Part shown: positions 1 through 12,001 of the stretch, piece after piece
Layout of the letters: every line of letters begins with the position of its first letter
Numbering within the stretch: the first letter of the stretch is position 1
Source: a virus
Lineage: Duplodnaviria; Heunggongvirae; Uroviricota; Caudoviricetes
DNA: 12,001 nt
Virus record (IMG/VR): IMGVR_UViG_2711768053_000012
Coordinates: 1 to 12,001 of that record
Strand: one strand, 5' to 3'
Made by a program: the position numbers and the translations under genes
Notes under the pieces: model-generated
The model's database searches: none
Seen by the model: only the letters and a program-made list of their open reading frames with translations
What the model was told of the DNA's origin: nothing

Positions 1-256
1 TGTTGGTTCCCATTGTTTCAAGGTCGATCATCAGGTGGTACCACACTCTGCTGGTGGATGTGATAACGTGATGACCGTTCACCGCAATTAAGGAATCTGC
101 CGTCTCGCCAGTTTCATTATCGCTGGCGTGGTCCTGAGCGCTGCCAGCATTCTCCTTGTGTGGATGTTCAGCGCCTTCCATTTCCTCCGGATCATTTTCC
201 TGAACTTCAACCTGATTCTCTTCATCGAATGTTTCCTGGCATGTTGCGTCGCCCAT
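1..256 (-). CDS. Putative phage exonuclease, N-terminal 85 codons only (gene continues past left edge of window)
   Basis: Own translation of the minus strand: ATG at 256..254, open frame to position 2, giving [15 protein letters not shown]...[17 protein letters not shown]. The MIDLETMGT stretch resembles the Exo I motif of DnaQ-like 3'-5' exonucleases. Absent from the ORF track because there is no stop inside the window. The plus-strand ORF 128..397 is its antisense shadow. Confidence 0.4.
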
Positions 257-397
257 CACCGCACCACAATCAGGGCAGTTGCCGCCACCGATCTGACCGC
301 AGGCGGTGCAGACTTTTTTTGTTTTAACCTCATTACAGATTTAAGGGTGAACAAATCCCTGCCATTGCTGGCATATAAAAATGAAACCGGATATTAA

Positions 398-601
398 TTA
401 CGGTGCTGTTTTAAGTCCTGCCGGGATTTCGTTATTGTCCATGCGAATAACTTTATCAACCGGATAACAGTTGCCGGGAATTTTCTGTTCCGCTGCGGCA
501 GCCATGCATTCTTTCATTGAGTCATGTATACCAATAACAAGATCGACTGGTTCGCCAGTATTAAGAAAAACTGTCAGAACGAGTGCAAATGCTGTATTCA
601 T
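398..601 (-). CDS. Hypothetical small protein (67 aa) with hydrophobic N-terminus
   Basis: Internal Met of track ORF 398..655 chosen as start because of an AAGGA Shine-Dalgarno about 9 nt upstream on the minus strand. Product MNTAFALVLTVFLNTGEP... has a signal-peptide-like or membrane N-terminus. Its start lies 3 nt after the stop of the upstream gene 604..786. The longer start at 655 cannot be excluded. Confidence 0.4.
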   Translation of the reverse strand: MNTAFALVLTVFLNTGEPVDLVIGIHDSMKECMAAAAEQKIPGNCYPVDKVIRMDNNEIPAGLKTAP

Positions 602-603
602 TG

Positions 604-786
604 TCAGCGTCCTTTTTGCATCAGGCGTAAACGGGCCAGCATTGAAACAATGCATATTTGATTTAATAGCTCCCGTTCGTGTTTTCTCTTATTAATGGCA
701 TCTTCAGTAAATACAGGGTTACTGATTCTGACACCAATTTCAAAACAACCTTCAGACGTATTGACGTTTGGTAATAACGTTTCCAT
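604..786 (-). CDS. Hypothetical small early-left protein (60 aa)
   Basis: Track ORF with GAGGA Shine-Dalgarno 7 nt upstream of the ATG at 786 (minus strand); tightly packed with the next gene. No recognisable motif. Confidence 0.45.
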   Translation of the reverse strand: METLLPNVNTSEGCFEIGVRISNPVFTEDAINKRKHERELLNQICIVSMLARLRLMQKGR

Positions 787-803
787 TATCGCGTCCTCAA
801 CAA

Positions 804-967
804 TGAATTTTGTGATGCGGTGCCTGGTGCCTCCAGGTGACGTTAACCAGTTAACAATTAACGCCGGAATACAGGGAAACCAACTCCATAAAACAAATAC
901 GGAGTACCGATCACTTTTTTAACTGTTCCGCGTGCGCTGAGCCGCATTCACCGCATCACAAAATTCA
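804..967. repeat. Perfect 19-bp inverted repeat (TGAATTTTGTGATGCGGTG at 804-822, CACCGCATCACAAAATTCA at 949-967) flanking a 126-bp spacer
   Basis: Read directly from the sequence. Lies in a roughly 560-bp stretch (787-1345) with no convincing ORF on either strand. The spacer contains further palindromic elements (GTTAACCAGTTAAC, CCTGGTGCCTCCAGG). Confidence 0.8.
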
Positions 968-1354
968 CTTTAAAAAGGGCGGACATCAGCCAGCAATGAA
1001 ACTGATGCCGCCAAAAGGTAATCAACATGGGTTGTTGCAGCGGGGTTGTCACTCAGGCGTATGGTCAACCTGACAACCCGGTGTCCTCAACAGGGGGAAG
1101 GAATAACCCCGCCATACGTACCGCCGCGCCATTTCGCGGAGTGCCACAACCGGAAGCGCACGGTCGAATTAAATTTAACGACACCGTACAGTGAGACGAA
1201 CTTCGCCGTGCGCTTTCGCGTTATGCCCTGACTTTTCAGGGATATATCCTTTCAGTAAACTGTCAGTGCCGGATGCTCACCCGTGTCCGGCGCACGCACT
1301 CCACCTGACCCGCGGAGAACTCCTTAATTACCAACCCTCAGGAGGGTGAAATTT

Positions 1355-1546
1355 ATGACACAAGAAGAAAAAATAATGTTTCTTATGCGCCTGGCTGTGG
1401 AAACCTTTAACGCCCATTGCCAGGTGTCCATTTCACCATCTCACGCCATTTCTCTTGCTACCGAGCAAATGGGGGAGATTGACGTCATTTACGATAAATT
1501 TGAGGCATTCCTGGATAAGAAGCTTATGGCAGAGAAGCGTCAATAA
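1355..1546 (+). CDS. Hypothetical small protein (63 aa), plus-strand gene inside a leftward operon
   Basis: ATG at 1355 preceded by a consensus AGGAGG 9 nt upstream; the track start at 1346 is a GTG in the same frame. Product MTQEEKIMFLMRLAVETFNAHCQ... Its 3' end overlaps the 3' end of the convergent minus-strand gene 1524..2129 by 23 nt. Confidence 0.45.
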   Translation: MTQEEKIMFLMRLAVETFNAHCQVSISPSHAISLATEQMGEIDVIYDKFEAFLDKKLMAEKRQ

Positions 1547-2129
1547 TTCTCATTACCCATCGTAAATATACCGGAGTGGGCTTGACGTTGTGTTTTTCAA
1601 GCTCGCTCTTCATTACTTCCTGCAACTTTGAGCTGATAATAAACAAATCAGGTTTATCGTTATTATTTTTATCAGCATCGTCTTTTTTTGTTTTCGACTC
1701 TTGTGGTGAATGCTCGAAAGTAACTTGCAGGGTATTATTTTTAGCGTCCGCAGAGCCTAAAGTATGTGCATATGGATGTGCTATTGTGCGCCCCTGTAAA
1801 TTTGCATCGTTTTCTAAATCTTTTGATTTCAACAGAACATCAGCAAGACTCTGAATCATGCAGAGATAATCAAAAGCAGTTGCCGTTTCTGTTCTGATTG
1901 ATGAAAGAACATGGCCATTCACGCAAACAGAAATTACCCGTTCATTAACATCGCTTTCCTGCTTTTGATTATCAGAACCATATAACCCAGAAAAAGCATT
2001 GCGCACATTACGAACCATATTATCGATGGTTTCTTTTTTAGCGGATGCCGGGTCAATTTCCACCAGGCTATCACTGAGTGTCGTTGCAGCAATTGTCTGG
2101 ATTTCTTTTGGTAAATCTTTAAATTCCAT
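1524..2129 (-). CDS. Hypothetical protein (201 aa), AT-rich, hydrophilic
   Basis: Track ORF with GAGG Shine-Dalgarno 8 nt upstream of the ATG at 2129; follows the upstream gene (stop at 2152) after a 22-nt gap. Lys/Asp/Asn-rich; no recognised domain. Appears AT-richer than neighbours by eye. Confidence 0.6.
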   Translation of the reverse strand: MEFKDLPKEIQTIAATTLSDSLVEIDPASAKKETIDNMVRNVRNAFSGLYGSDNQKQESDVNERVISVCVNGHVLSSIRTETATAFDYLCMIQSLADVLLKSKDLENDANLQGRTIAHPYAHTLGSADAKNNTLQVTFEHSPQESKTKKDDADKNNNDKPDLFIISSKLQEVMKSELEKHNVKPTPVYLRWVMRIIDASLP

Positions 2130-2151
2130 TATTAGCCTCGTTGGTTAGCTA

Positions 2152-2370
2152 TTAACGCGGGTATGTAATCATTCTGGCAACGCTTAATGCCGCTGCCTTT
2201 GTCAGACTGGCGATATCCTGCTCCAGAGCGGACAGATTTTCAGCCTGCTTAGCCCTGGCTTCATTGGCCCATTTCAGATCCTGCGCTGCATTAATTTTCT
2301 GGCGCATCCACTCATAAAGTTCATCATCGGTATAGTCTGGCGCGATGATGACGGGTTCTCGTTTCTGCAT
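2152..2370 (-). CDS. Hypothetical small phage protein (72 aa)
   Basis: Track ORF; same orientation and tight spacing with flanking leftward genes. Product MQKREPVIIAPDYTDDELYEWMRQKINAAQ... Confidence 0.55.
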   Translation of the reverse strand: MQKREPVIIAPDYTDDELYEWMRQKINAAQDLKWANEARAKQAENLSALEQDIASLTKAAALSVARMITYPR

Positions 2371-2400
2371 ACTGAATTCCTCGCGGTGCTGTTTCGCTTA

Positions 2401-2529
2401 TCAGCCGTTAGATTTTGCCGAACTGGAAAGCGCCTGTTCAAATTCGCTGAAGCTGAGGACTTCTTCGCCTTCGGCAAGGCCTTCGAAGTATTCTTCGTAA
2501 GCCTTTTCCATGATTGTGTCGAAATCCAT
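2401..2529 (-). CDS. ydaG: YdaG-like small protein (42 aa)
   Basis: Below the size cutoff of the ORF track; found by my own reverse-complement translation: MDFDTIMEKAYEEYFEGLAEGEEVLSFSEFEQALSSSAKSNG. ATG at 2529, TGA at 2403-2401. Matches my recollection of E. coli Rac prophage YdaG. Start lies 2 nt after the ydaF-like stop. Confidence 0.6.
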   Translation of the reverse strand: MDFDTIMEKAYEEYFEGLAEGEEVLSFSEFEQALSSSAKSNG

Positions 2530-2530
2530 A

Positions 2531-2686
2531 TCACTCACCTGAGTTTCTTTCCAGCCAGCGACGGGCACCATTTTCGGTTTTAAACGTTTTGCTTATGGTA
2601 TACGTCATCGCGGTGAATGTGCCGTCCTGGTTGGGAAACACGCCGTATACCAGAGATTCGTTGTTGCCAAGATCGATAGTATCCAT
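2531..2686 (-). CDS. ydaF: YdaF-like small protein (51 aa, DUF1391-like)
   Basis: Internal Met of track ORF 2531..2764 with GAGG Shine-Dalgarno 5 nt upstream. Product MDTIDLGNNESLVYGVFPNQDGTFTAMTYTISKTFKTENGARRWLERNSGE matches my recollection of Rac prophage YdaF. The 77-aa extended form is less likely. Confidence 0.6.
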   Translation of the reverse strand: MDTIDLGNNESLVYGVFPNQDGTFTAMTYTISKTFKTENGARRWLERNSGE

Positions 2687-2864
2687 GCTGACCTCATTTC
2701 CCCTTAACGCCGGGGTAGCGGAACAAAAACCTGCTGCATAGTTAAAGTTGAACCCTGCCGTCATGTTCTTACGCCTCGGGCTGGCTACTTAACCCCTGAC
2801 CACTGCCTGGTAACTCGAAGTATTGCCCTGCATTCTGTGGGGCGGGGTGGGTTGGTATGCAATA

Positions 2865-2893
2865 AATCTAAAAGTATTTAGTTTTATAGTCAA
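2865..2893 (-). promoter_or_regulatory. pL-like leftward promoter with overlapping operator palindrome
   Basis: On the minus strand: -35 TTGACT (plus 2888-2893), 17-nt spacer, -10 TAGATT (plus 2865-2870). Overlaps the imperfect palindrome AATCTAA-AAGTAT-TTAGTTT at 2865-2884, which has the same 7-6-7 architecture as sites next to the cro-like gene. Confidence 0.45.
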
Positions 2894-2910
2894 GGAAAAT
2901 CTAAATTAAT

Positions 2911-2938
2911 TTAAAAAAAGGTCGGCATAACCGACCTT
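2911..2938 (-). terminator. Rho-independent terminator downstream of the repressor gene
   Basis: Minus-strand hairpin AAGGTCGG-ttatg-CCGACCTT followed by a 7-T run, immediately after the repressor stop at 2960. Confidence 0.6.
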
Positions 2939-2959
2939 AAGTTCAAGAACATGGCAGGG

Positions 2960-3607
2960 TTATAGGTTGAACTGTACACCTTTTGCTACGGCAACAATTT
3001 TACACTCTGGCGTAAGCAAGGATGATTGATAGCGCGGATTGAGAGGGCTTAAATACACAAGTTTTCCATCAATAACTAATTTTTTTATAGTCATAGACGG
3101 TTCATTTGTAAGAGGATCTGGAACTATTACAGCGACGATACTGCCATTTTTATAACTTTCTCCTGGTCTTAGGATCACAGTGGCACCAACTGGGATACTT
3201 GGCGACCCTGAGGGGTTATGCATAGTGTCATCAGGCATTGAAACGGCAAAATCACCTTCCACTACATCAAAGAATGTGGTGATCCTATCGACATTTCCCA
3301 TTGTTTTCTCTCCTTCTAAGATTAGGAAAGAAATCGCGTCACCCCACGAAAAGTAGGGGATCTTGGTGCCTGGATTGCTCTGCACAAAAGATAGTTCAGG
3401 AGACGATACTCCATACAGGAGATAGGACTCAGTAGTTCCTAATGCTTGGGCTAACTTACTTAGAGCTTTGCTGCCGGGTTCGTTTAGATCTTTCTCCCAG
3501 TACCCTATAGTAACCCCAGTCACGCCTGAAAGCTTACCCAGTTCTACTTGGGTGAGTCCCTTATCTTTTCTGAGTTTCTTAAGCCTGATGCCAAGGCTTT
3601 CCATCAT
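2960..3607 (-). CDS. CI-like prophage repressor (N-terminal HTH_XRE, C-terminal S24 LexA-type self-cleaving peptidase)
   Basis: 215 aa. N-terminal HTH (LTQVELGKLSGVTGVTIGYWE). C-terminal S24 signatures: Ser in AVSMPD and Lys in IKKLVIDGKLVYLSPLNPRYQ, the latter closely resembling lambda CI [27 protein letters not shown] Shine-Dalgarno upstream of the ATG at 3607. Divergent from the cro-like gene. Confidence 0.9.
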   Translation of the reverse strand: MMESLGIRLKKLRKDKGLTQVELGKLSGVTGVTIGYWEKDLNEPGSKALSKLAQALGTTESYLLYGVSSPELSFVQSNPGTKIPYFSWGDAISFLILEGEKTMGNVDRITTFFDVVEGDFAVSMPDDTMHNPSGSPSIPVGATVILRPGESYKNGSIVAVIVPDPLTNEPSMTIKKLVIDGKLVYLSPLNPRYQSSLLTPECKIVAVAKGVQFNL

Positions 3608-3623
3608 TTTCTCCCGCGAGTTG

Positions 3624-3690
3624 AATATAAATTATTTTAGATTGCATTGACCTAAAAAAAATTATCCTGTAATCTAAAAATACTTAGATT
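3624..3690. promoter_or_regulatory. Immunity-region operator/promoter (OR/pR-like): two 7-6-7 palindromic operators and a rightward promoter
   Basis: Perfect palindrome AATCTAA-AAATAC-TTAGATT at 3671-3690 and near-perfect AATATAA-ATTATT-TTAGATT at 3624-3643. Candidate pR: -35 TTGACC 3647-3652, 17-nt spacer, weak -10 TAATCT 3670-3675 overlapping the operator. Sits between the divergent repressor and cro-like genes. Confidence 0.5.
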
Positions 3691-3703
3691 TTAGGAGAGT
3701 GAA

Positions 3704-3931
3704 ATGCGAGTTGATGAACTTGTTCAGTTTTTTGGCTCTGTTCAGAGGGTCGCTGATTTTTATGGGATAACCCGCGAAGCTATTTACATGTGGCGTAAGC
3801 GCCCCGGTGAAATAGTTCCGAAAGGGAGAGCTGCGGAAGCTGCTGCATACTCCAAGGGAAAATTATCTTTGAACCCAGAGCTTTACAAAAAGAAGGATAC
3901 CACTCAGAGCGAAAGGAAGAGTGATTCATGA
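3704..3931 (+). CDS. Cro-like HTH regulator (75 aa)
   Basis: GGAGAG Shine-Dalgarno 6 nt upstream. The motif ELVQFFGSVQRVADFYGITREAIYMWRKRPGEIVP parallels P22 Cro (VIDHFGTQRAVAKALGISDAAVSQWKEVIPE, from memory). First gene rightward of the repressor. Confidence 0.8.
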   Translation: MRVDELVQFFGSVQRVADFYGITREAIYMWRKRPGEIVPKGRAAEAAAYSKGKLSLNPELYKKKDTTQSERKSDS

Positions 3932-4353
3932 AAATCAAGCATGAGCACATCCGCATGGCGATGAATGCCTGGGCGCATCCGGATGGTGAAAAAGTTCCGG
4001 CAGCTGAAATAACCCGGGCTTATTTTGAGCTGGGTATGACGTTCCCGGAACTGTATGACGACAGCCATCCGGAAGCCCTGGCTCGCAATACTCAGAAAAT
4101 TTTCCGCTGGGTGGAGAAAGACACCCCTGATGCGGTTAAAAAAATTCAGGCGTTGTTACCAGCGATCGAAAAAGCAATGCCACCTCTGCTGGTGGCCCGA
4201 ATGCGCAGCCACAGTTCAGCCTATTTTCGGGAGCTGGTGGAGACGCGGGAACGACTGGTGAGAGATGCTGATGATTTTGTCGCAGTGGCGATCGCTGGTT
4301 TCAATCAGATGAATCGTGGTGGTCCGGCGGGAAATGCCCTGGTGATGCACTAA
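3928..4353 (+). CDS. ydaT: YdaT-like protein (CII functional analogue family), 141 aa
   Basis: Start overlaps the cro-like stop (ATGA). N-terminus MKIKHEHI and C-terminal ...VMH match my recollection of Rac/CP-933P YdaT; it occupies the cII position after cro. AGGAAGAG Shine-Dalgarno upstream. Confidence 0.6.
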   Translation: MKIKHEHIRMAMNAWAHPDGEKVPAAEITRAYFELGMTFPELYDDSHPEALARNTQKIFRWVEKDTPDAVKKIQALLPAIEKAMPPLLVARMRSHSSAYFRELVETRERLVRDADDFVAVAIAGFNQMNRGGPAGNALVMH

Positions 4354-4376
4354 AAGCACGGTGTTCGGAGTTTTTT

Positions 4377-5324
4377 ATGAGCAGCAAGCTTCATGGTCTT
4401 GTCTGGGAAGGGTGCGCCTTCACCGGCATGATCTTATCCAGGGTGGCAGTAATGGCTCGCCTTGCAGATTACAGCAATGACGAAGGTGTGTCATGGCCTG
4501 CAGTGGAGACCATTCGTCGTCAGATTGGGGCAAAGAGTGAATCAACGGTTAAAGCTGCGATAGCGGAACTGGAAAAGAACGGCTGGCTGACGAAGGAGGA
4601 ACGTAAGGTCGGTGGGCGTAATGTAAGCAATATCTACCGCCTTAATGTGGAAAAACTCGAAGCAGCAGCAGCGGCGGCGCGTGAGGCATATAAACCGAAA
4701 AGAAAAATTAGCCAGGCAAAAAATGACCCGTCAAATATTGCCCCCTCAACGGTTGACCCCTCAAATTTTGATGGATCAACCATTGATAAAAAACAGTCGG
4801 ATAGGGGGGCGATGGTTGGCCCCGATCCGTCAGTATTAAAACCTGATCCGTCAGATAAAAGATCTTTTCGTCCGGACGCTTCGCAACCGGACCCGCAGAC
4901 GGCTGAACAGGATTTTTTAACCCGACACCCTGACGCGGTTGTGTTCAGTGCGAAAAAACGCCAGTGGGGCAGCCAGGAAGATTTGGCGTGTGCGCAGTGG
5001 ATCTGGGGACGAATCGTGAGTCTTTACGAGCAGGCTGCCAGCGATGATGGCGAAATCATGCGACCGAAAGAACCCAACTGGACTGCATGGGCCAATGATG
5101 TGCGCACAATGCGGATGCTGGATGGCAGAACTCACAGACAAATTTGCGAAATGTTTGGTCGGGTACAGCGGGATCCATTCTGGGTAAAAAACGTCATGAG
5201 CCCGTCAAAGCTTCGCGAAAAATGGGATGAGCTGGTTATTCGTCTGGGGCGTTCGCCTGTACAGCGTTGCGTGAATCACATTTCTGAACCGGATACCGAA
5301 ATTCCGCCGGGCTTCAGGGGGTAA
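4377..5324 (+). CDS. Phage replication initiation protein (N-terminal HTH DNA-binding domain, low-complexity linker, C-terminal domain; lambda O-like organisation)
   Basis: 315 aa. N-terminal region LSRVAVMARLADYSNDEGVSWPAVETIRRQIGAKSESTVKAAIAELEKNGWL is typical of phage replication-initiator HTH domains. The linker DPSNIAPSTVDPSNFDGS...PDPSVLKPDPSDK is encoded by iteron-like DNA repeats. Sits after the cro/cII-like genes. Confidence 0.7.
   Translation: MSSKLHGLVWEGCAFTGMILSRVAVMARLADYSNDEGVSWPAVETIRRQIGAKSESTVKAAIAELEKNGWLTKEERKVGGRNVSNIYRLNVEKLEAAAAAAREAYKPKRKISQAKNDPSNIAPSTVDPSNFDGSTIDKKQSDRGAMVGPDPSVLKPDPSDKRSFRPDASQPDPQTAEQDFLTRHPDAVVFSAKKRQWGSQEDLACAQWIWGRIVSLYEQAASDDGEIMRPKEPNWTAWANDVRTMRMLDGRTHRQICEMFGRVQRDPFWVKNVMSPSKLREKWDELVIRLGRSPVQRCVNHISEPDTEIPPGFRG
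4725..4905 (+). repeat. Iteron-like direct repeats (candidate replication origin) inside the replication initiator gene
   Basis: GACCCGTCAAATATTG (4725-4740), GACCCCTCAAATTTTG (4755-4770), GATCCGTCAGTATTAAA (4824-4840), GATCCGTCAGATAAAA (4845-4860), plus degenerate copies near 4741-4750 and 4890-4899. Consensus GAYCCNTCA followed by an A/T-rich tail. Confidence 0.55.
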
Positions 5325-5366
5325 GTGTTGATTTGAGGTTATGAAGTTATTTTCTCAGGAGAGTTT

Positions 5367-5768
5367 ATGGGGACTATTTATACCGAAGAACAGCGGGAAA
5401 GATTACAGCGTCATATCGTTGACCTTGTGCGTAAAAACGGGCGTATGACAATGCCACAACTGGCATCGGCAACATATGCTTCACATGATTCCATTCGCCG
5501 GTACCTGAAGATGCTGGTGAGCGAGGGCGAAGTGTATGTTGTCAGCGGAAAAGGGGTATTCCTTTCAGAGAGGGTTTACCGTGAATGGCTGGCAAGTTCG
5601 GCAAGAAAAGCAAGGGTTATCCGCAAACCAGCACAAAAACAGGGTAAGGCAGGAGCACAACCCTATGACCGGCACCAGAACATAATTTGCCGTGAGTGCC
5701 GGAAGAGTGAAGTTATGCAGCGTGTACTGGCGTTCTATCAGGGAGATTTTCAGGAGGTGATGGAGTGA
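5367..5768 (+). CDS. Hypothetical phage protein with probable winged-helix DNA-binding N-terminus (133 aa)
   Basis: AGGAGA Shine-Dalgarno 5 nt upstream of ATG. The segment NGRMTMPQLASATYASHDSIRRYLKMLVSEGEV is wHTH-like; basic C-terminal tail. No helicase-loader features. Confidence 0.6.
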   Translation: MGTIYTEEQRERLQRHIVDLVRKNGRMTMPQLASATYASHDSIRRYLKMLVSEGEVYVVSGKGVFLSERVYREWLASSARKARVIRKPAQKQGKAGAQPYDRHQNIICRECRKSEVMQRVLAFYQGDFQEVME

Positions 5769-6070
5769 GGGTGAGGGTTTATATCGCCGGTCCGATGACC
5801 GGGTATAAAAATTTCAACCGTGAGGCGTTCCACAAGGCGGAAGAGGAACTGAAACGGGAAGGGCATACAGTCTTAAACCCAGCAGTACTTCCGGACGGAC
5901 TGACGCAGCCACACTATATGGATATTTGCATGGCAATGATTCGTTGTGTGGATGCGATTTACATGCTGAAAGGCTGGCAGCGGTCAGCAGGTGCTAAGGC
6001 AGAACTGGCACTGGCGGAGAAGCTGGGGCATGCAGTTATTTTTCAGGAGGCAACCAGTGAGCAACATTAA
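5765..6070 (+). CDS. DUF4406-like protein (nucleoside 2-deoxyribosyltransferase-like fold), 101 aa
   Basis: GTG start at 5765 overlapping the upstream stop, AGGAGG 7 nt upstream. N-terminal VYIAGPMTGYKNFNREAFHKAEEELKREGHTVLNP matches my recollection of the DUF4406 signature (YIAGPMTG...NP). Confidence 0.65.
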   Translation: MRVRVYIAGPMTGYKNFNREAFHKAEEELKREGHTVLNPAVLPDGLTQPHYMDICMAMIRCVDAIYMLKGWQRSAGAKAELALAEKLGHAVIFQEATSEQH

Positions 6071-6611
6071 TTACCAGGCACTGCGAATGGCGGCAGAAAA
6101 TGCAACCCCTGGCGAATGGTGTTCTGATGATTATGGGGTAATTGCCGATGCCGGACTGAACGCAAATTACTACATAGCATCATGCTCAGGACCAGATAAT
6201 CGCGCCAATAAGCGATTCATAGCGGCAGCCAATCCGGCTACCGTGCTGGCAGTGCTTGATGAACGGGGAGCCCAAAGCAAACGCATTGCAGAGCTGGAAG
6301 CTAATCTTGTGGCGCTGGCGGCGGAGAATGCAGGGCTGAATAAATTTATCGCACAGAGTTGCTACGTGTTTGATGGCGAGCAGGATGAAATATCTGATGC
6401 GTATATCTGCGCAAGAGACGGAGGTATGCCGCAAACCACGGCTACAGATGCTCTCCTGGCTGATGTACGGGCGGTGGCGTTTGACGAACTTCGCGCGGCG
6501 TTTGTCAGGCACGCAAAAGTTGCAGGACTGGATGATGCCGATACCGTAACGCTTAAGGAAGTGACAGAAGCATTGTTGCATTGTGCGGAACAGATTCGCT
6601 CGCCTGAATAA
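6057..6611 (+). CDS. Ead/Ea22-like phage protein
   Basis: The track ORF starts at 5991 inside the previous gene. I prefer the in-frame GTG at 6057 (AGGAGG 6045-6050, 6 nt upstream); an ATG at about 6090 is an alternative. The N-terminal motif INYQALRMAAENATPGEW resembles the conserved start of Ead/Ea22-like proteins as I recall them. Confidence 0.6.
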   Translation: MSNINYQALRMAAENATPGEWCSDDYGVIADAGLNANYYIASCSGPDNRANKRFIAAANPATVLAVLDERGAQSKRIAELEANLVALAAENAGLNKFIAQSCYVFDGEQDEISDAYICARDGGMPQTTATDALLADVRAVAFDELRAAFVRHAKVAGLDDADTVTLKEVTEALLHCAEQIRSPE

Positions 6612-6705
6612 TTAAATTTAGTGTTGCAAATAAAATTTAATCCTTAACCGGAGGGATTCCTACACCCTCAGAACATCAGGAGGCCGCCCGAAAGGGCGGT
6701 AATGA

Positions 6706-6924
6706 ATGGTCACATTATTCAGAAAAAAATATCCACGAAAGAGTAGAACAACAGAATTCCTGTTTCTCATTCTGTTTATCGTGTTAATGATACCGATATC
6801 CCCGCTAATTTTTGTCTGGGCAATCGGGAAAATAATTGAGCCAGTTATTGAATTGTATAACGACGTGGTATGGGCGTCGTTCAACACACTGCACAATAAA
6901 ATTAATCCGTATAAGGAGAACTGA
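6706..6924 (+). CDS. Hypothetical small membrane protein (72 aa; basic N-terminus plus one transmembrane helix)
   Basis: Track ORF. Product MVTLFRKKYPRKSRTTEFLFLILFIVLMIPISPLIFVWAIGK... Stop at 6922-6924, 1 nt before the next gene's ATG. Region is AT-rich by eye. An AGGAGG at 6678-6683 is separated from the ATG by a GNRA-loop hairpin. Confidence 0.5.
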   Translation: MVTLFRKKYPRKSRTTEFLFLILFIVLMIPISPLIFVWAIGKIIEPVIELYNDVVWASFNTLHNKINPYKEN

Positions 6925-6925
6925 T

Positions 6926-7444
6926 ATGACCACTATTACCAGAGAAAACGCGGAGATTAAATCATTCATCACTGGTTTCCTGAGCGACCCGGCGCACGAT
7001 ATCCAATCTTCAGACAGCCTGCTTGCCAATGTGTTTCGTATCGCACTGGCGTCACTGGAAGCAGAGCCAGTGGCGTGGAAGGCAACCTTCACGCAAATTG
7101 ACAATGAATATAATACGTTCACTGCTCTGTATTCTGACAAAGCAGAAGTCGAACGGTGGGTGCGACTGCATGAAATAGGTGACTTTCGGGCAGAAATAAC
7201 ACCGCTTTACGCAGCGCCGTCAGCGCCGGTAGCTCCAGATGGTTGGATAAGCTGTAGTGAGCGAATGCCAAAAGATGGTCAGCACGTAATTATTTTATGT
7301 GATGGCGCATTCGTTCTTTATGCGCAATATCGGGACGGTGAGTTTTTTGATGTCGTCCGCAATGGTGAGGAATTCTTCGAAACGCAGAGCCGCAATGTAA
7401 CCCACTGGATACTGCTACCGGAGCCGCCGCAGGAGGTGAACTGA
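6926..7444 (+). CDS. Phage protein with C-terminal DUF551-like domain (172 aa)
   Basis: The track ORF starts at 6836 inside the previous gene; ATG at 6926 has an AAGGAGA Shine-Dalgarno 6 nt upstream. C-terminal ...THWILLPEPPQEV matches my recollection of the DUF551 C-terminal motif. Confidence 0.65.
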   Translation: MTTITRENAEIKSFITGFLSDPAHDIQSSDSLLANVFRIALASLEAEPVAWKATFTQIDNEYNTFTALYSDKAEVERWVRLHEIGDFRAEITPLYAAPSAPVAPDGWISCSERMPKDGQHVIILCDGAFVLYAQYRDGEFFDVVRNGEEFFETQSRNVTHWILLPEPPQEVN

Positions 7445-7836
7445 TGAATGAAGGCGACAATGTTATCACCCTGGTGCAGCCAAAATCAGAGGAGGAAGGG
7501 CTCCTTAACGTTGTGATAACCGACAGAAAAAGCGGCGAGCAAAAATACTGTCAGCATATCCGTACAACAATTTCAGAAGTGAAGCGTACGATTACCTGCA
7601 ACCGATGCGGATTGGCTTTAGAACCGTTCGAACTTGTTCTCGACCGTGCGAGAAACGGTGAAAACATCGTGTCAGAGATTAAATCACTCTATGCAAAGCG
7701 GGATGCTCTTCGTGAAGCTGTGGCAAAACTTGAACGTGAAGAGAAAAACGCCAAAGCCCGGTTGCGAGCAGCCAGGACTGCAATACTGTATGCGGAAAAT
7801 GACCTTAAAAATATTGGGCAGGAGGTGAATCGATGA
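7444..7836 (+). CDS. Hypothetical phage protein (130 aa) with Cys pair and C-terminal coiled-coil-like region
   Basis: ATG overlaps the upstream stop (TGATG), AGGAGG 7 nt upstream. CQH...C...CNRC residues and a heptad-like charged C-terminus (AKRDALREAVAKLEREEKNAKARLRAAR). Confidence 0.65.
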   Translation: MNEGDNVITLVQPKSEEEGLLNVVITDRKSGEQKYCQHIRTTISEVKRTITCNRCGLALEPFELVLDRARNGENIVSEIKSLYAKRDALREAVAKLEREEKNAKARLRAARTAILYAENDLKNIGQEVNR

Positions 7837-7916
7837 CCTGGCCTGAGGCATTTACTACGGTAGGAATTGCGATGGCGGTGGCGCTGGTGGTGTATTCGAT
7901 TTGCCGCTGGGGATAA
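7833..7916 (+). CDS. Small hydrophobic peptide (27 aa), translationally coupled
   Basis: Below the ORF-track cutoff; my own translation is MTWPEAFTTVGIAMAVALVVYSICRWG. ATG overlaps the upstream stop (ATGA), with a consensus AGGAGG (7820-7825) 7 nt upstream. Single predicted transmembrane segment. Confidence 0.45.
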   Translation: MTWPEAFTTVGIAMAVALVVYSICRWG

Positions 7917-8127
7917 AAACGGTTTGCGGGAAAAGGAGAGTTAAGTAGAATTGCTGCGGGTGCTTGAGGCTATCTGCCTCAGGCATGAACACCAAAAGGC
8001 AGATAGAGAAAAGCCCCAGTTAACATTACGCGTCCTGCAAGACGCTTAACATTAATCTGAGGCCCAATCTATGTCTCACAAATGTAGGTTAGCCTCTTAC
8101 GTGCCGAAAGGCAAGGAGAAGCAGGCT

Positions 8128-8283
8128 ATGAAGCAGCAAAAGGCGATGTTAATCGCCCTGATCGTCATCTGTTTAACCGTCATAGTGACGGCACTGGTAA
8201 CGAGGAAAGACCTCTGCGAGGTACGAATCCGAACCGGCCAGACGGAGGTCGCTGTCTTCACAGCTTACGAACCTGAGGAGTAA
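8128..8283 (+). CDS. hokD: Hok/Gef family type I toxin (51 aa)
   Basis: Product MKQQKAMLIALIVICLTVIVTALVTRKDLCEVRIRTGQTEVAVFTAYEPEE matches my recollection of E. coli HokD (RelF) and aligns closely with Gef/Hok. AAGGAGA Shine-Dalgarno 8 nt upstream of the ATG at 8128. The track ORF starts at an upstream in-frame ATG (8071) giving 70 aa. The upstream leader is highly structured and a terminator follows. Confidence 0.85.
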   Translation: MKQQKAMLIALIVICLTVIVTALVTRKDLCEVRIRTGQTEVAVFTAYEPEE

Positions 8284-8351
8284 GAGACCAGGCGGGGGAG
8301 AAATCCCTCGCCACCTCTGATGTGTCAGGCATCCTCAACGCACCCGCACTT

Positions 8352-8376
8352 AACCCGCTTCGGCGGGTTTTTTATT
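8352..8376 (+). terminator. Rho-independent terminator after hok
   Basis: Hairpin AACCCGC-ttcg-GCGGGTT followed by TTTTTTATT. The 21 bp TAACCCGCTTCGGCGGGTTTT (8351-8371) recur identically at 10186-10206. Confidence 0.75.
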
Positions 8377-8421
8377 GGTTGACAAAATTATGAATATGCA
8401 CCAATATCTTGGTTGACAAAA
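8375..8421 (+). promoter_or_regulatory. Tandem 13-bp direct repeats TTGGTTGACAAAA (8375-8387 and 8409-8421) containing a consensus -35 TTGACA; candidate promoter/operator of the cassette
   Basis: Read from the sequence; repeats are 34 bp apart. The first TTGACA (8379-8384) with a 17-nt spacer gives a weak -10 CAATAT (8402-8407), placing the second repeat near the predicted transcription start. Confidence 0.45.
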
Positions 8422-8456
8422 GTCGTTTTTTGCACGGATTAGGCGGAGAAGTGTCT

Positions 8457-9050
8457 ATGCAGAAGCATCCATTCCCTTGGGAGTTCTTTCCTGAGTTAAC
8501 AGAGGATCGTTTAACCATTATAGCTGAGGAGTTGCTCAGGATACAGGATATTACTCATGAGTTATTGTCATCGCCCTATGATGATAATTACACTCGTGGT
8601 GGTTGTACATTTGGGCGTCAGCGGCAGGCGTTGCTACAAATGTGCATACGAAAGACATATGACTGGTTAAGACTACTTAATCCTGGCATGGATCTTACGT
8701 TTTCAATTGGGAATGTCCCTATTCGTTTCTTTACTGATGACGCAGATAACCCCAAGAAACGCGGTTTTTTCAAAAGAAATGATGCTGATCGACTCTTTGA
8801 GTCAGAGGAGACCACTCCAACTATGCATCGCTTTGTGGTTGAAAAGCCTGAATTTGAAGGCGAGGGTGGTAGAGTCATTTTTAATGGCTATAACGTGTTT
8901 GGTGAGATCGTGTCAACTTGGACATATGGTGCGGACCGTGTTGTTATGCTGAACTCTGTCGATGATGTACCTCCAGCACCGGTACCTATCGAACTAGAAC
9001 CTATCAGTGCGTCTAAGACTGAGAAGGAAAAGAAACAAAATAGCAAATAG
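8457..9050 (+). CDS. Hypothetical protein, first gene of the cassette (197 aa from ATG 8457; 213 aa if ATG 8409 is used)
   Basis: Track ORF 8409..9050. I prefer the in-frame ATG at 8457 (GGAG about 10 nt upstream) because the 8409 ATG lies inside the direct-repeat/-35 element. No recognisable catalytic motif; acidic Pro-rich C-terminus and Lys-rich tail. AT-richer than the flanks by eye. Confidence 0.6.
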   Translation: MQKHPFPWEFFPELTEDRLTIIAEELLRIQDITHELLSSPYDDNYTRGGCTFGRQRQALLQMCIRKTYDWLRLLNPGMDLTFSIGNVPIRFFTDDADNPKKRGFFKRNDADRLFESEETTPTMHRFVVEKPEFEGEGGRVIFNGYNVFGEIVSTWTYGADRVVMLNSVDDVPPAPVPIELEPISASKTEKEKKQNSK

Positions 9051-9060
9051 TGGGTGAAAT

Positions 9061-10182
9061 GTGTTTAACGGTACTAATTTAAGACTTGCTCGTCTGTATC
9101 ACGAGCTATCTCTGGAGCAGGTTGCTGAGAAGGTTGAAAAAACACGCCAGTATGTACAGCGACTGGAGTCTGGTTCAGCTACTCCATCCCCAGAGCTTAT
9201 AAATAAATTAGCCGAGGTTTTGCGCGTGAAGCCCGCCTTTTTCGAAGGGCAGGAACATTCTCCTGTTAATGAAGAGATTGTACATTTTCGTAAACGCGCC
9301 TCGACAAGGATGTCAACGAAGCTATCAACACTCGCTAAGGCTGAGTTTTATCGTCGTTTTATTGATGTATTTGAAGATAACCTTAATTTGTCACCTGTTC
9401 GATTTCCTGAATTTCGTGTCCATACACAAGAAGATATCGAGCGAGCGGCAGAAAAATGTCGTATTGAGTGGGGCTTAGGCTTTGGCCCAATTGAAAATAT
9501 GACTCGCCTTGCCGAGAAACTTGGGGCGTTTGTTACTTCATTTGACTCCGTTTCGGATGAAGTAGATGCACTGTCTGTTCCTCTACGAAGGCCTTTTATT
9601 GTTCGAAATACAGCTAAAAATTCACCTTGTAGGCAACGCTTTGATATTGCTCATGAGGTTGCCCATTTGATTCTTCATGAAGGAATTTCTACTGGGGATA
9701 GATTAACTGAATCCCAGGCAAACCGCTTTGCCTCTGCTCTGTTGCTTCCCAGAACGTCGATGGCGAAATATTTTCCAAGACCTGTGGGGGGGAGGATAAA
9801 TTGGCAGGGACTAAGCCAATTTAAGTTGACATGGAAAGTAAGTAAGGCTGCCATTGTTTACAGGGCTCATCAATTAGGACTTTTGACTGATGAGCAGTAC
9901 AGAACTGCATTTATGGGGTTGAAACGGAAAGGGGAAGCTATTGATGAAAAAGAAGATTATCTAATCCCTCATGAGCGTCCTGAGTTATTCCGTCGGGCTT
10001 TATCGTTTTTATTTGAAGAGTTAGGATACGACCCACAGCGTATAGCTGATGAAATGGATATAGAAGTGGACATTTTTTATGAGTTAGTAGGAGATGATCT
10101 TCCTGCGGTTCATGAACTGCCAGGAAGTGGTGATGTTGTTTCACTACAATCTTACCGAACTCTTAGAGGCAAAATTCACTAG
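9061..10182 (+). CDS. Fused HTH_XRE DNA-binding domain plus ImmA/IrrE-family (DUF955/COG2856-type) HExxH zinc metallopeptidase, 373 aa
   Basis: GTG start at 9061, first start after an in-frame stop and 10 nt after the upstream gene's stop. N-terminal HTH (LSLEQVAEKVEKTRQYVQRLESGSATPSPELINKLAEVLRV); HEVAH (HExxH) at about 9652-9666 inside FDIAHEVAHLILHE, typical of ImmA/IrrE peptidases; about 120-aa C-terminal extension. A terminator follows immediately. Confidence 0.8.
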   Translation: MFNGTNLRLARLYHELSLEQVAEKVEKTRQYVQRLESGSATPSPELINKLAEVLRVKPAFFEGQEHSPVNEEIVHFRKRASTRMSTKLSTLAKAEFYRRFIDVFEDNLNLSPVRFPEFRVHTQEDIERAAEKCRIEWGLGFGPIENMTRLAEKLGAFVTSFDSVSDEVDALSVPLRRPFIVRNTAKNSPCRQRFDIAHEVAHLILHEGISTGDRLTESQANRFASALLLPRTSMAKYFPRPVGGRINWQGLSQFKLTWKVSKAAIVYRAHQLGLLTDEQYRTAFMGLKRKGEAIDEKEDYLIPHERPELFRRALSFLFEELGYDPQRIADEMDIEVDIFYELVGDDLPAVHELPGSGDVVSLQSYRTLRGKIH

Positions 10183-10186
10183 GCAT

Positions 10187-10214
10187 AACCCGCTTCGGCG
10201 GGTTTTGTTTTTTC
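10187..10214 (+). terminator. Rho-independent terminator after the cassette (sequence-identical to the hok terminator)
   Basis: Hairpin AACCCGC-ttcg-GCGGGTT followed by TTGTTTTTTCT, beginning 5 nt after the stop at 10182. Confidence 0.75.
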
Positions 10215-10285
10215 TGAGCATCCTGGTTTACAATTCGCACGTCAGCCTGAACACCTGACACCTGCTGCGCCAGCAGAGAAAACCG

Positions 10286-10558
10286 ATGGCGCACAATACC
10301 AAACATCACAATTCTGATACCGACCTTGCCAGCAGGCACGGGCGGCGTTCTCATACATTCAAATATGACTGGTTCCAGCATGATCCATGCACTGAAGAAC
10401 AGGCCGAATGGCTGATTCAGTGTTACCGCAGGCGCGGATGCGAGGTTAAAAAAGCCCTTAGCCTCGACTACCGACATTGGATAATTTCAGTCAGGCTCCC
10501 TTATTCCGAACGCCCGCCGCGTCCGTCCCGCACATTACAGCAACGGATCTGGAGGTAA
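10286..10558 (+). CDS. Hypothetical protein (90 aa), rem-like by position
   Basis: Track ORF ending 1 nt before the YdfU-like start; weak Shine-Dalgarno. Sits directly upstream of the DUF968 gene, as rem does relative to ydfU in E. coli K-12 Qin (recollection of gene order only, no sequence recognition). Confidence 0.4.
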   Translation: MAHNTKHHNSDTDLASRHGRRSHTFKYDWFQHDPCTEEQAEWLIQCYRRRGCEVKKALSLDYRHWIISVRLPYSERPPRPSRTLQQRIWR

Positions 10559-10559
10559 C

Positions 10560-11609
10560 ATGCGGGTATTGCTTCGACCTGTTCTGGTACCGGAACTCGG
10601 GCTGGTGGTCCTTAAGCCTGGTCGTGAATCCATGCAGGTATTTCATAATCCTCGAGTGCTGGTGGAGCCGGAACCGAAAAGCATGCGCAGTCTGCCGTCA
10701 GGAGCTGTTCCTGCCGTTCGCCAGCCGCTCGTGGAAGATAAATCATTACTGCCATTTTTCAGCGATGAGCGGGCGATTCGTGCTGCTGGCGGCGCTGGCG
10801 CATTGTCTGACTGGCTCCTGCGTCATGTTAAATCCTGCCAGTGGCCTCATGGTGACTATCACCACAGCGAAACCGTCATACATCGTTACGGTACCGGCGC
10901 AATGGTGTTGTGCTGGCACTGTGACAACCAGCTGCGCGACCAGACATCAGAATCACTCGGGCAACTTGCTCAACAAAACTTGTCAGCATGGATGATTGAC
11001 GTCATCCGTCACGCAATGAATGGCACACAGGAGCGGGAATTATCGCTAGCTGAATTATCCTGGTGGGCGGTCTGCAATCGGGTAGCGGACGCGCTACCGG
11101 AGGCAGTATTACGTCGTTCTCTGGGGTTACGTGCGGAAAAAATCCGTTCGGCGTACCGCGAAAGTGACATCGTACCGGGAGAGCAGACAGCCACCAGCAT
11201 ACTGAAGCAGCGCACAAAAAATATTGTGCTACCGCCTCACGCCCACCAGCAACAGAACCCACCACAGGAAAAGACGGTGGTCAGCATTGCCGTTGATCCG
11301 GAGTCTCCTGAATCTTTCATGAAACGACCTAAACGTCGCCGTTGGGTTAATAAGAAATACACGCGCTGGGTAAAGACACAGCCGTGTGCGTGTTGTGGTA
11401 AGCCAGCCGACGATCCCCATCACCTGATTGGTCACGGTCAGGGAGGGATGGGAACAAAGGCCCACGATATTTTCACGCTACCGTTGTGCCGGGAACATCA
11501 CAACGAACTTCATGCGGATCTGCTGGCGTTCGAAGAAAAGCATGGTTCTCAGGTTGATTTAATTTTTCGTTTTCTTGATCACGCCTTTGCAACCGGCGTG
11601 CTCGGGTAA
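10560..11609 (+). CDS. DUF968-like protein, YdfU-like (349 aa) with C-terminal Cys/His-rich region
   Basis: GGAGG Shine-Dalgarno 4 nt upstream of ATG. C-terminal CACCGKPADDPHHLIGHG...CREHHNELH looks like a zinc-binding/HNH-like motif. Length and position (after a hok toxin, before nin-region genes) match my recollection of Qin YdfU. Confidence 0.65.
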   Translation: MRVLLRPVLVPELGLVVLKPGRESMQVFHNPRVLVEPEPKSMRSLPSGAVPAVRQPLVEDKSLLPFFSDERAIRAAGGAGALSDWLLRHVKSCQWPHGDYHHSETVIHRYGTGAMVLCWHCDNQLRDQTSESLGQLAQQNLSAWMIDVIRHAMNGTQERELSLAELSWWAVCNRVADALPEAVLRRSLGLRAEKIRSAYRESDIVPGEQTATSILKQRTKNIVLPPHAHQQQNPPQEKTVVSIAVDPESPESFMKRPKRRRWVNKKYTRWVKTQPCACCGKPADDPHHLIGHGQGGMGTKAHDIFTLPLCREHHNELHADLLAFEEKHGSQVDLIFRFLDHAFATGVLG

Positions 11610-11621
11610 AAGAGGTTACTG

Positions 11622-11996
11622 ATGCGTATAGAGTTTGTTTTGCCTTACCCACCGACGGTGAACACCTACTGGCGACGTCGTGGCAGCACATATTTTGTAT
11701 CAAAAGCCGGTGAGCGTTATCGCCGGGATGTGGCACTTATTGTTCGCCAGCAGCGACTGAAATTAAACCTGTCCGGAAGGCTAGCGATAAAGATTATTGC
11801 AGAGCCACCGGATAAGCGCCGCCGCGACCTGGACAATATCCTGAAGGCACCACTGGATGCGCTGACGCATGCCGGACTACTTATAGACGACGAGCAGTTT
11901 GATGAAATCAATATTGTGCGCGGTCAGCTCGTTCCTGGTGGACGTCTGGGGGTGAAGATTTACCCCATAATGCATGAAGAGCAGGTCAAAAAATGA
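11622..11996 (+). CDS. rusA: RusA-family Holliday junction resolvase
   Basis: 124 aa. PPDKRRRDLDNILKAPLDALTHAGLLIDDEQ matches the RusA catalytic region (E. coli RusA [30 protein letters not shown], from memory). AGAGG Shine-Dalgarno upstream. An ATG overlapping its stop (11993) probably starts the next nin-region gene. Confidence 0.85.
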   Translation: MRIEFVLPYPPTVNTYWRRRGSTYFVSKAGERYRRDVALIVRQQRLKLNLSGRLAIKIIAEPPDKRRRDLDNILKAPLDALTHAGLLIDDEQFDEINIVRGQLVPGGRLGVKIYPIMHEEQVKK

Positions 11997-12001
11997 AGCT
12001 G

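Follow-up and report, generated by a model that had tools for sequence, protein, structure and literature searches.

A conserved STnc100-class RNA domain closed by a perfect inverted repeat in the dicBF-type leader of a lambdoid prophage

Here we examine a viral DNA stretch of 12,001 nucleotides (the window; positions 1 to 12,001 of the IMG/VR record IMGVR_UViG_2711768053_000012, Caudoviricetes), with a focus on the interval 787-1345 upstream of the small gene dicB. An earlier reading of the letters alone, hereafter the original prediction, had described this interval as one non-coding feature of about 560 bp with a perfect 19-bp inverted repeat, and had proposed a structured leader or non-coding RNA, a site for a DNA-bending regulator or the remnant of a miniature inverted-repeat element. 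We find that the interval is most probably the processed leader of a dicBF-type operon, in which a DicF-type small RNA (sRNA) precedes dicB and the repeat forms a helix for RNase III between the two. In the RNA, the repeat encloses four hairpins, and the resulting domain (802-969, minus strand) is related to the STnc100/PasD class of prophage sRNAs. DicF and DicB are textbook prophage inhibitors of host cell division, and the output of each depends on cutting of their transcript. Placing the repeat on this known RNase III step thus explains what had been an anonymous structured spacer.

The identity of the locus is established by its genes and by its homologues. The 60-aa product of 604..786 (minus strand) matches the Pfam family DicB (PF05358, E = 1.5e-37, 127.5 bits), and the corresponding gene is annotated as DicB in homologous phages and in Escherichia coli K-12. 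Together with a YdfD-like gene (398-601, minus strand), a cI-like repressor gene encoding helix-turn-helix and S24 domains (2960-3607, minus strand) and a Cro-like gene (3704-3931, plus strand), dicB stands in lambdoid order, and the leader has the immunity-region neighbour of a dicBF-type operon. Over some 550 nt (787-1336), the sequence shares about 85% identity with the Qin prophage of E. coli K-12 in its ydfC-dicF-dicB interval, with both long helices retained. The interval finds a match in 4718 of 5426 complete E. coli genomes (87%), at a median of two places per genome, and phage Tritos has DicF annotated at the homologous position. Judged by its sequence, 787-1345 is the untranslated part of a leftward, pL-type dicBF-type operon in a lambdoid prophage.

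The inverted repeat is real and far longer than expected by chance. Its arms, TGAATTTTGTGATGCGGTG at 804-822 and CACCGCATCACAAAATTCA at 949-967, lie 126 nt apart and show 100% complementarity, as originally reported, and against the 19 nt observed, 500 shuffles of 787-1345 that preserve dinucleotides gave perfect inverted repeats of at most 12 nt. In RNA read from the minus strand, one G.U and one A-U pair extend the repeat to a helix of 21 continuous pairs, P1, with its 5' arm at 949..969 (the right arm of the repeat plus 2 nt) and its 3' arm at 802..822 (the left arm plus the two added pairs). P1 closes a structured, STnc100-class domain of 168 nt (802..969, minus strand) that lies between the DicF terminator and dicB and holds the hairpins H1 to H4, all on the minus strand. 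H1 (930..945) reads GCGGC-ucagc-GC.CGC, and H2 (866..929) is an insert of variable length closed by GGA/UCC. H3 (839..865) is a 10-bp hairpin, GGCGUUAAUU-guuaacu-GGUUAACGUC, and H4 (823..837; CCUGG-AGGCA-CCAGG) forms the STnc100 signature together with its flanking CACC. The palindrome cluster noticed earlier lies where it had been placed, with CCTGGTGCCTCCAGG at 823-837 and GTTAACCAGTTAAC at 842-855, and its GTTAAC palindromes are contained in H3. P1 ends 3 nt before the dicB Shine-Dalgarno sequence (SD; GAGGA, 794..798, minus strand, 7 nt before the AUG at 786-784), in line with the earlier remark that the left arm stops just upstream of the ribosome-binding site, and this GAGGA is kept in all dicB-type loci of the alignment. 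Across the start codon itself, a local hairpin (GAUAAUGGAAACGUUAUU, 770-790, minus strand) sequesters the dicB AUG in every predicted fold, regardless of upstream structure.

Folding energy and covariation establish that the domain acts as minus-strand RNA. The fold of 780-1030 (minus strand) has a z-score of -6.75 against shuffles, and with its conserved RNA parts the interval is indeed too structured for simple spacer DNA. A covariance model, R1, was built from 15 diverse spacer copies and a hand-drawn structure, and was used to align 57 distinct copies taken from viral contigs and from records of phages or genomes; over the domain, R1 scores 172.4 bits on the minus strand and 38 bits on the plus strand. 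Across these 57 homologues, 98.9% of the cells are paired and five pairs show double changes (19 cells), a result reached by none of 500 shuffles. Within P1, one-sided changes that keep a G.U pair occur in 10-18 of the 57 sequences and pair-breaking ones in 1-5; read on the opposite strand, the G.U variants would be A.C mismatches, and two pairs are altered on both sides. H3 carries compensatory changes from G-C to U-A and from U-A to G-C or G.U (L007, L028, L030 and L036 among the compared loci), and the closing pair of H2 changes from A-U to C-G in five sequences. H1 is 98.9% paired with little variation. The stems therefore show the covariation among related prophages that had been proposed as a check, with the caveats that the sequences are closely related and that H4 was fixed by the search pattern. 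When RNAalifold was run on the raw MAFFT alignment, P1 was not recovered, its 3' arm having been misaligned by bulge variants, and the hand-drawn structure with the covariance model was used instead. A scan of genome contigs yielded no new helix variants.

The domain is conserved well beyond its neighbours and travels as a unit. Among 61 DicF-to-dicB haplotypes, mean pairwise identity amounts to 97.5% in the 5' block of the domain and 96.9% in its 3' block, compared with 87% in DicF, 82% in dicB and 75% at the third codon positions of dicB. H2 stands at 81%, and its insert outside the conserved ACAGUUAAA and the closing pairs ranges from 20 to 45 nt. The original prediction had suggested looking for the repeat unit as a block in related prophages, and such a block, 802-969, is present before dicB, kilR and other genes. 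In nearly all elements examined, three A's separate the domain from a preceding DicF-type terminator, and a gene start follows it. The downstream genes are mostly DicB variants, the others being KilR, a 94-aa zinc-finger-like protein and a Rha-type gene, and the 3' arm of P1 ends 3-25 nt before the SD or AUG of DicB, KilR or the 94-aa protein. At Rha-type loci (L009), translation probably does not start at the first AUG, and the Rha-family gene probably begins about 270 nt downstream. The Rac prophage of MG1655 (L249) has the sRNA gene KilS (1006-1103, minus strand) in the DicF position, then the spacer (831-1005, minus strand) and then kilR.

Some copies depart from this arrangement or extend its range. 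Four loci (L035, L045, L057 and L084) keep the 3' half only, that is, H3, H4 and the 3' arm of P1, below unrelated upstream sequence, and are probably products of recombination or insertion. The K-12 Rac copy has CCAGACACC in place of CCAGGCACC next to H4. Among species representatives, the domain with a window-type H1 block is confined to Escherichia and Shigella. Metagenome-assembled genomes under the labels Veillonella, Collinsella, Nanosynbacter and 'Proteobacteria' (L257, L260, L262 and L263) also contain exact copies of the element, most likely through mis-binning of E. coli prophage contigs. Many sequenced phages, such as Tritos, mEp460, the vB_Eco series and Stx2 converting phages, now carry DicB, DicF and the spacer; a survey from 2016, covering about 2,000 phage genomes, had found no such phage copies.

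Kinship of the domain to STnc100 is apparent in both directions of search. The Rfam model STnc100 (RF02076) aligns to the domain with 33.7 bits (E = 2.4e-5) over model positions 21-154 of 206, its outer stem coinciding with the repeat. Conversely, R1, made from spacer copies only, detects canonical STnc100 copies that pass the Rfam threshold, at 30-67 bits. In 79 distinct canonical sequences, the shared structure is 93.9% paired, against 39-45% with partners slid, and 34 of its 44 pairs have compensatory changes. All 10 H3 pairs covary in the wider STnc100 family, the hairpin equivalent to H1 covaries in the canonical copies, and the CCGGG/CCCGG found there in H4 is itself a compensatory change. 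The domain has the STnc100 core fold with the signatures GGUGAAU and CACCnGGAGGCACCnGGCACC, the latter being abundant in viral contigs. Both groups share a closing helix ending in GGUG/CACC, an AAU, a first hairpin, variable hairpins and the invariant CACCnGGAGGCACCnGGCACC hairpin, and both are prophage-borne in Enterobacteriaceae.

The two groups differ in their genomic setting. Canonical STnc100 copies are free-standing genes with a further 3' part, several with putative promoter-like sequences directly upstream. They often form tandem arrays by tRNA genes, located in the late region at 11-15 kb from dicF and on the opposite strand. The window copy has neither a promoter-like site nor its own terminator, and its closing helix extends to 21 bp. 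In 33-61 of the 79 canonical copies, gaps stand in place of the outer 11 pairs of P1, so the RNase III-length helix goes with embedding in an operon. A free-standing sRNA gene is not indicated at 802-969, given that the minus strand has no promoter-like site there and that the domain abuts both the DicF terminator and the dicB SD. The same lack of a minus-strand promoter-like site speaks against an internal promoter for dicB, and Ragunathan et al. 2023 likewise found none. From these features, the domain appears to be a promoter-less and terminator-less STnc100/PasD relative that scores below the Rfam threshold. STnc100, PasD of enteropathogenic E. coli (EPEC) and EcOnc27/sRNA103 of enterohaemorrhagic E. 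coli (EHEC) are Hfq-associated sRNAs of late prophage regions without an assigned function, the Hfq association being reported for canonical copies only. We found no paper that places an STnc100 relative in the dicF-dicB or kilS-kilR spacer, and the MG1655 annotation is blank at both.

Several canonical copies stand out by their arrangement. Tandem arrays of four to six occur in L136 (2265-3380) and L186 (4349-5513 and 8357-8555); arrays lie beside phage tRNA genes in L136 and L128 and beside isrI-like RNAs in L186, L152 and L135. In another type of phage (L129, 8036-8320), an STnc100-like domain with a window-type H1 lies upstream of a DicF-like terminator hairpin, and between this hairpin and the next gene comes a 13-bp inverted repeat (AAAACAGAGAAGA / TCTTCTCTGTTTT).

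Upstream of the domain, the DicF-family sRNA gene occupies 972..1030 (minus strand, with a provisional 5' end), where a terminator scan finds a stem at 982-1009 and a U-run at 972-976. The Rfam model DicF (RF00039) aligns over its full length (model positions 1-52) to 977-1027 (minus strand) with 34.1 bits (E = 2.2e-5), and the terminator is the GGCGG...CCGCC hairpin with U-run expected of DicF. The Rfam search proposed for the interval thus returned two families, DicF and STnc100, with both scores short of the respective gathering values. DicF, KilS and the window sRNA are alike in being short, in ending in a GGCGG...CCGCC terminator followed by AAAG and a structured spacer, and in lying upstream of a division-inhibitor gene. 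The 5' seed differs, with UUUCUGGUGACG in K-12 DicF and AUGUUGAUUACC in the window, as do the loops. In viral contigs, three seed classes precede the same type of terminator, namely those of K-12 DicF, of the Rac type (the sRNA annotated as KilS in MG1655 and verified by northern blot) and of the window type, AUGUUGAUUACC, which is the rarest of the three among the contigs examined. Complementarity to the ribosome-binding site of ftsZ is reduced to GUUUC:GAAAC in the window sRNA, and its duplex with ftsZ (-31.7 kcal/mol) is matched by 52% of shuffles in a crude test in which K-12 DicF itself stands at 13%. Since its seed is rare and, like its loop, unlike those of K-12 DicF or Rac KilS, the window sRNA may have targets other than ftsZ.

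The remainder of the leader, from 1345 to about 1031 on the minus strand, consists of some 300 nt of conserved hairpins. The largest is a long imperfect helix (1145..1225; arms 1145-1168 / 1201-1225), seen both as an inverted repeat and in the fold, whose 3' arm is exactly that of K-12. Just upstream of the sRNA lies a conserved hairpin, GGGUUGUCA...UGACAACCC (1043..1079), with one compensatory change, U-A to C-G, in L121, L031 and L009. The hairpin CCCUGA-aaag-UCAGGG (1226..1241) is suggested weakly by fold and alignment and is partly disrupted in K-12-type sequences. Farther upstream, a distal conserved untranslated leader is delimited by BLAST junctions and the alignment (1237..1336). It contains the GC-rich hairpin GCCGGA-N12-UCCGGC of the original prediction, at 1268..1291 (arms 1268-1273 / 1286-1291); the motif is present and nearly invariant in 28 distinct homologues, and because of this invariance, which leaves no covariation, its pairing is unproven. 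All of these lie on the minus strand. The fold of 1020-1350 as a whole is no better than shuffles (z = -1.5), and we claim individual helices only. The earlier view of 787-1345 as one feature therefore holds for its non-coding nature, whereas the interval resolves into at least three separate features, including an sRNA gene.

Processing by RNase III is known from the K-12 homologue. The Qin dicF-dicB interval was reportedly studied by Faubladier et al. as early as 1990, and the dicBF operon is repressed in laboratory K-12. Later studies of this interval are those of Balasubramanian et al. 2016 and Ragunathan et al. 2023, and processing by RNase III as well as by RNase E has been described for ydfC-dicF-dicB. 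From full-length dicBF mRNA, RNase III generates the 72-nt DicF (PMC5069750, PMC9438474), and a 190-nt DicF precursor requires RNase III (Ragunathan et al. 2023). The Qin interval resembles the window in the order of its parts, in the long helix upstream of the sRNA, in the type of terminator and in a structured spacer of 160-176 nt that ends at the dicB SD. It differs in having ydfC upstream, where the window has a convergent phrog_2605 gene, in two G.U pairs within P1, where the window has the perfect 19-bp repeat, and in H2, which is 16 nt longer in the window.

The known K-12 ends can be projected onto these helices. Nucleotides 54-72 of K-12 DicF read UUUUUAAAGUGAAUUUUGU, and nucleotide 72 falls at AAAGUGAAUUUUGU|GAUGUGGUG, in the middle of the 5' arm of P1, which corresponds to the junction between 958 and 957 in the window. 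Counting 190 nt back from the 3' end of K-12 DicF leads to CCGUGCG|CUUCCGG in the 3' arm of the upstream helix, equivalent to 1157/1156. P1, with its 21 continuous pairs, is the uninterrupted helix of about two turns that characterizes RNase III sites. By analogy with K-12, we infer that both long helices are RNase III targets in this prophage too. RNase III signals of phage early RNAs, such as those of the lambda N leader, lambda sib and T7 R0.3-R1.3, similarly place a long hairpin between units of an early transcript, where the cut separates the units and resets a 5' end beside a ribosome-binding site. Each of those signals is a simple hairpin, in some cases with an internal loop, whereas the domain closed by the window helix is conserved, comprises four hairpins and is related to free-standing sRNAs.

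In the resulting model, leftward transcription would start at a pL-like promoter adjacent to the cI-like repressor gene. RNase III would cut the long helix 1145-1225 to give a DicF precursor, and the DicF-family sRNA (972-1030) would end at its own intrinsic terminator. Read-through of this terminator would extend the transcript into the four-hairpin domain, where RNase III would cut P1. This cut would trim the sRNA side to the equivalent of the 72-nt DicF of K-12, and a matching cut in the 3' arm, at about 815-810, would free the folded core. The dicB mRNA would then be left with a short leader starting about 25-30 nt before its AUG, with possible effects on dicB expression.

Several points weigh against this model. 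The cuts are those of the K-12 homologue, and the 72-nt and 190-nt ends were placed by arithmetic from secondary statements. The transcriptome-wide RNase III maps examined do not mention the site, citing DicF in passing (two papers). Both Rfam matches stay below their gathering scores (34.1 bits against 48 for DicF and 33.7 against 47 for STnc100), the alignment of the domain was fitted to R1, and the double changes of P1 within the spacer family come from one lineage (L036, L088 and L090). Moreover, RNase III needs the helix alone, and the roughly 97% identity of H1, H3, H4 and their junctions is unexplained by it. Because RNase III accounts for the helix and not for the conservation of the core, two further roles of the domain deserve consideration, both compatible with a processed dicBF-type leader.

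On the first, which we regard as possible and hold only tentatively, the domain is mainly a cis-acting gate on a toxic downstream gene (dicB, or kilR in Rac-type phages). The folded core would control translation initiation of dicB or the stability of its 5' end, and the RNase III cut would be the switch or incidental. Such a gate would fit the position of the element, which abuts the start region in nearly all elements examined, and the fact that most downstream genes are division inhibitors. Predicted accessibility of the SD is also higher in the RNA starting at the proposed cut (0.78) than in the full transcript (0.18). This shift, however, requires the SD to pair with the 5' region of the window-specific DicF, which K-12 does not share, and the AUG is locked in its local hairpin in all models. 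Since the pairing is not conserved, we do not rely on the accessibility modelling.

On the second, which is rather doubtful, the core of about 150 nt, once excised, is a trans-acting or protein-binding RNA of the STnc100/PasD/EcOnc27 kind, and the operon would supply DicB together with two regulatory RNAs. The core is far more conserved than its neighbours and shares its fold and signatures with STnc100, members of which are abundant Hfq-associated sRNAs in EHEC and EPEC. Yet the window copy lacks model positions 1-20 and 155-206 (the 3' part beyond P1) and any promoter-like site, and neither the dicF-dicB nor the kilS-kilR spacer has a reported RNA of such a size.

The locus is mostly explained by known biology, being a diverged dicF locus with an RNase III-processed leader. 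The link to STnc100 and the shared use of the domain by DicB and KilR loci are modest additions, neither of which we found in the literature examined. One domain serves both the DicF-dicB and the KilS-kilR pairs, and the STnc100 class is very abundant. At the curated thresholds, these copies escape both Rfam families, and the intervals therefore stay blank in routine annotation. A more speculative proposal, to which we give limited credence, is that the spacer is an operon-embedded RNA of the STnc100/PasD class with a function of its own, either as a regulatory RNA after excision or as a gate that binds protein or ribosomes, and that this function is coupled specifically to the division inhibitors of prophages. 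The coupling is suggested by the position of the domain, upstream of DicB in phages of the Qin type and of KilR in those of the Rac type. If true, this would account for a core identity of about 97% while the flanking sRNA and protein genes drift, and would give the function-less STnc100 family a first testable context. The shared domain and its STnc100 membership suggest a concrete experiment on the role of the conserved core.

Other readings fare considerably worse. A polymerase-modifying antiterminator RNA of the HK022 put type, which would help early-left transcription through terminators downstream of dicB, is very unlikely. By positional reasoning it would suit a conserved multi-hairpin nascent RNA in a pL-type operon, and some phages show no N gene in the stretch examined. 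The domain, however, lies after rather than before the only strong terminator seen, occurs also in phages annotated with N and has relatives that are free-standing sRNA genes with promoter-like sequences.

A feature of the DNA itself, either the remnant of a miniature inverted-repeat transposable element (MITE) or paired sites for a DNA-bending protein, is highly improbable. The perfect terminal inverted repeats, the recurrence of the 802-991 block before different genes and the four loci with only the 3' half would be compatible with it. The flanks, AAAG and TTGT, nevertheless show no target-site duplication, and the element is never dispersed, as nearly all copies, apart from the four halves, sit between a DicF-type terminator and a gene start. 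Moreover, the arms vary in ways that are G.U-compatible only as minus-strand RNA, a constraint irrelevant for duplex DNA, pairs change on both sides, and the internal hairpins covary. We therefore reject the MITE and DNA-binding-site readings on flanks, context and strand-specific G.U variation, so that among the three options of the original prediction only the structured leader or non-coding RNA stands. Conservation of the inverted repeat, whose lack among relatives would have spoken against this option, is seen in the 57 homologues, where 98.9% of the cells in the structure are paired.

Likewise, we reject a decayed protein-coding gene or hidden small open reading frame (ORF), to which almost no weight can be given. 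Candidates exist in plus-strand ORFs of 52-61 codons, in two hypothetical proteins annotated in one phage record and in a 29-codon minus-strand ORF inside the domain. The ORFs of 787-1345 are all short, without family match and without ribosome-binding site. Those at 1027-1194 and 1046-1231 (plus strand), the latter dismissed as frame noise from the outset, are broken by 1-nt indels between close homologues. The ORF inside 802-969 varies from 12 to 47 codons with unrelated C-termini across 57 variants, one of which lacks its AUG. In the curated K-12 annotation, the homologous interval is likewise untranslated. The frame-breaking indels, the unstable internal ORF and the absence of family matches together indicate that 787-1345 holds no protein gene, as had been proposed.

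Beyond the leader, homology to K-12 stops at 1336/1337, with BLAST junction classes at 1336, 1309, 1296 and 1236. In place of K-12 ydfC, the window has the convergent phrog_2605 gene (1355-1546, plus strand). Its ribosome-binding site lies exactly at the homology junction 1336/1337, and its 3' end overlaps the next leftward gene (1524-2129, minus strand) by 23 nt. Elsewhere in the window, a sok antitoxin RNA matches Rfam with 121.7 bits at 7958-8133 (plus strand) and is overlapped by an ORF at 8071-8283 (plus strand), a match that indicates a hok/sok-type module in the prophage.

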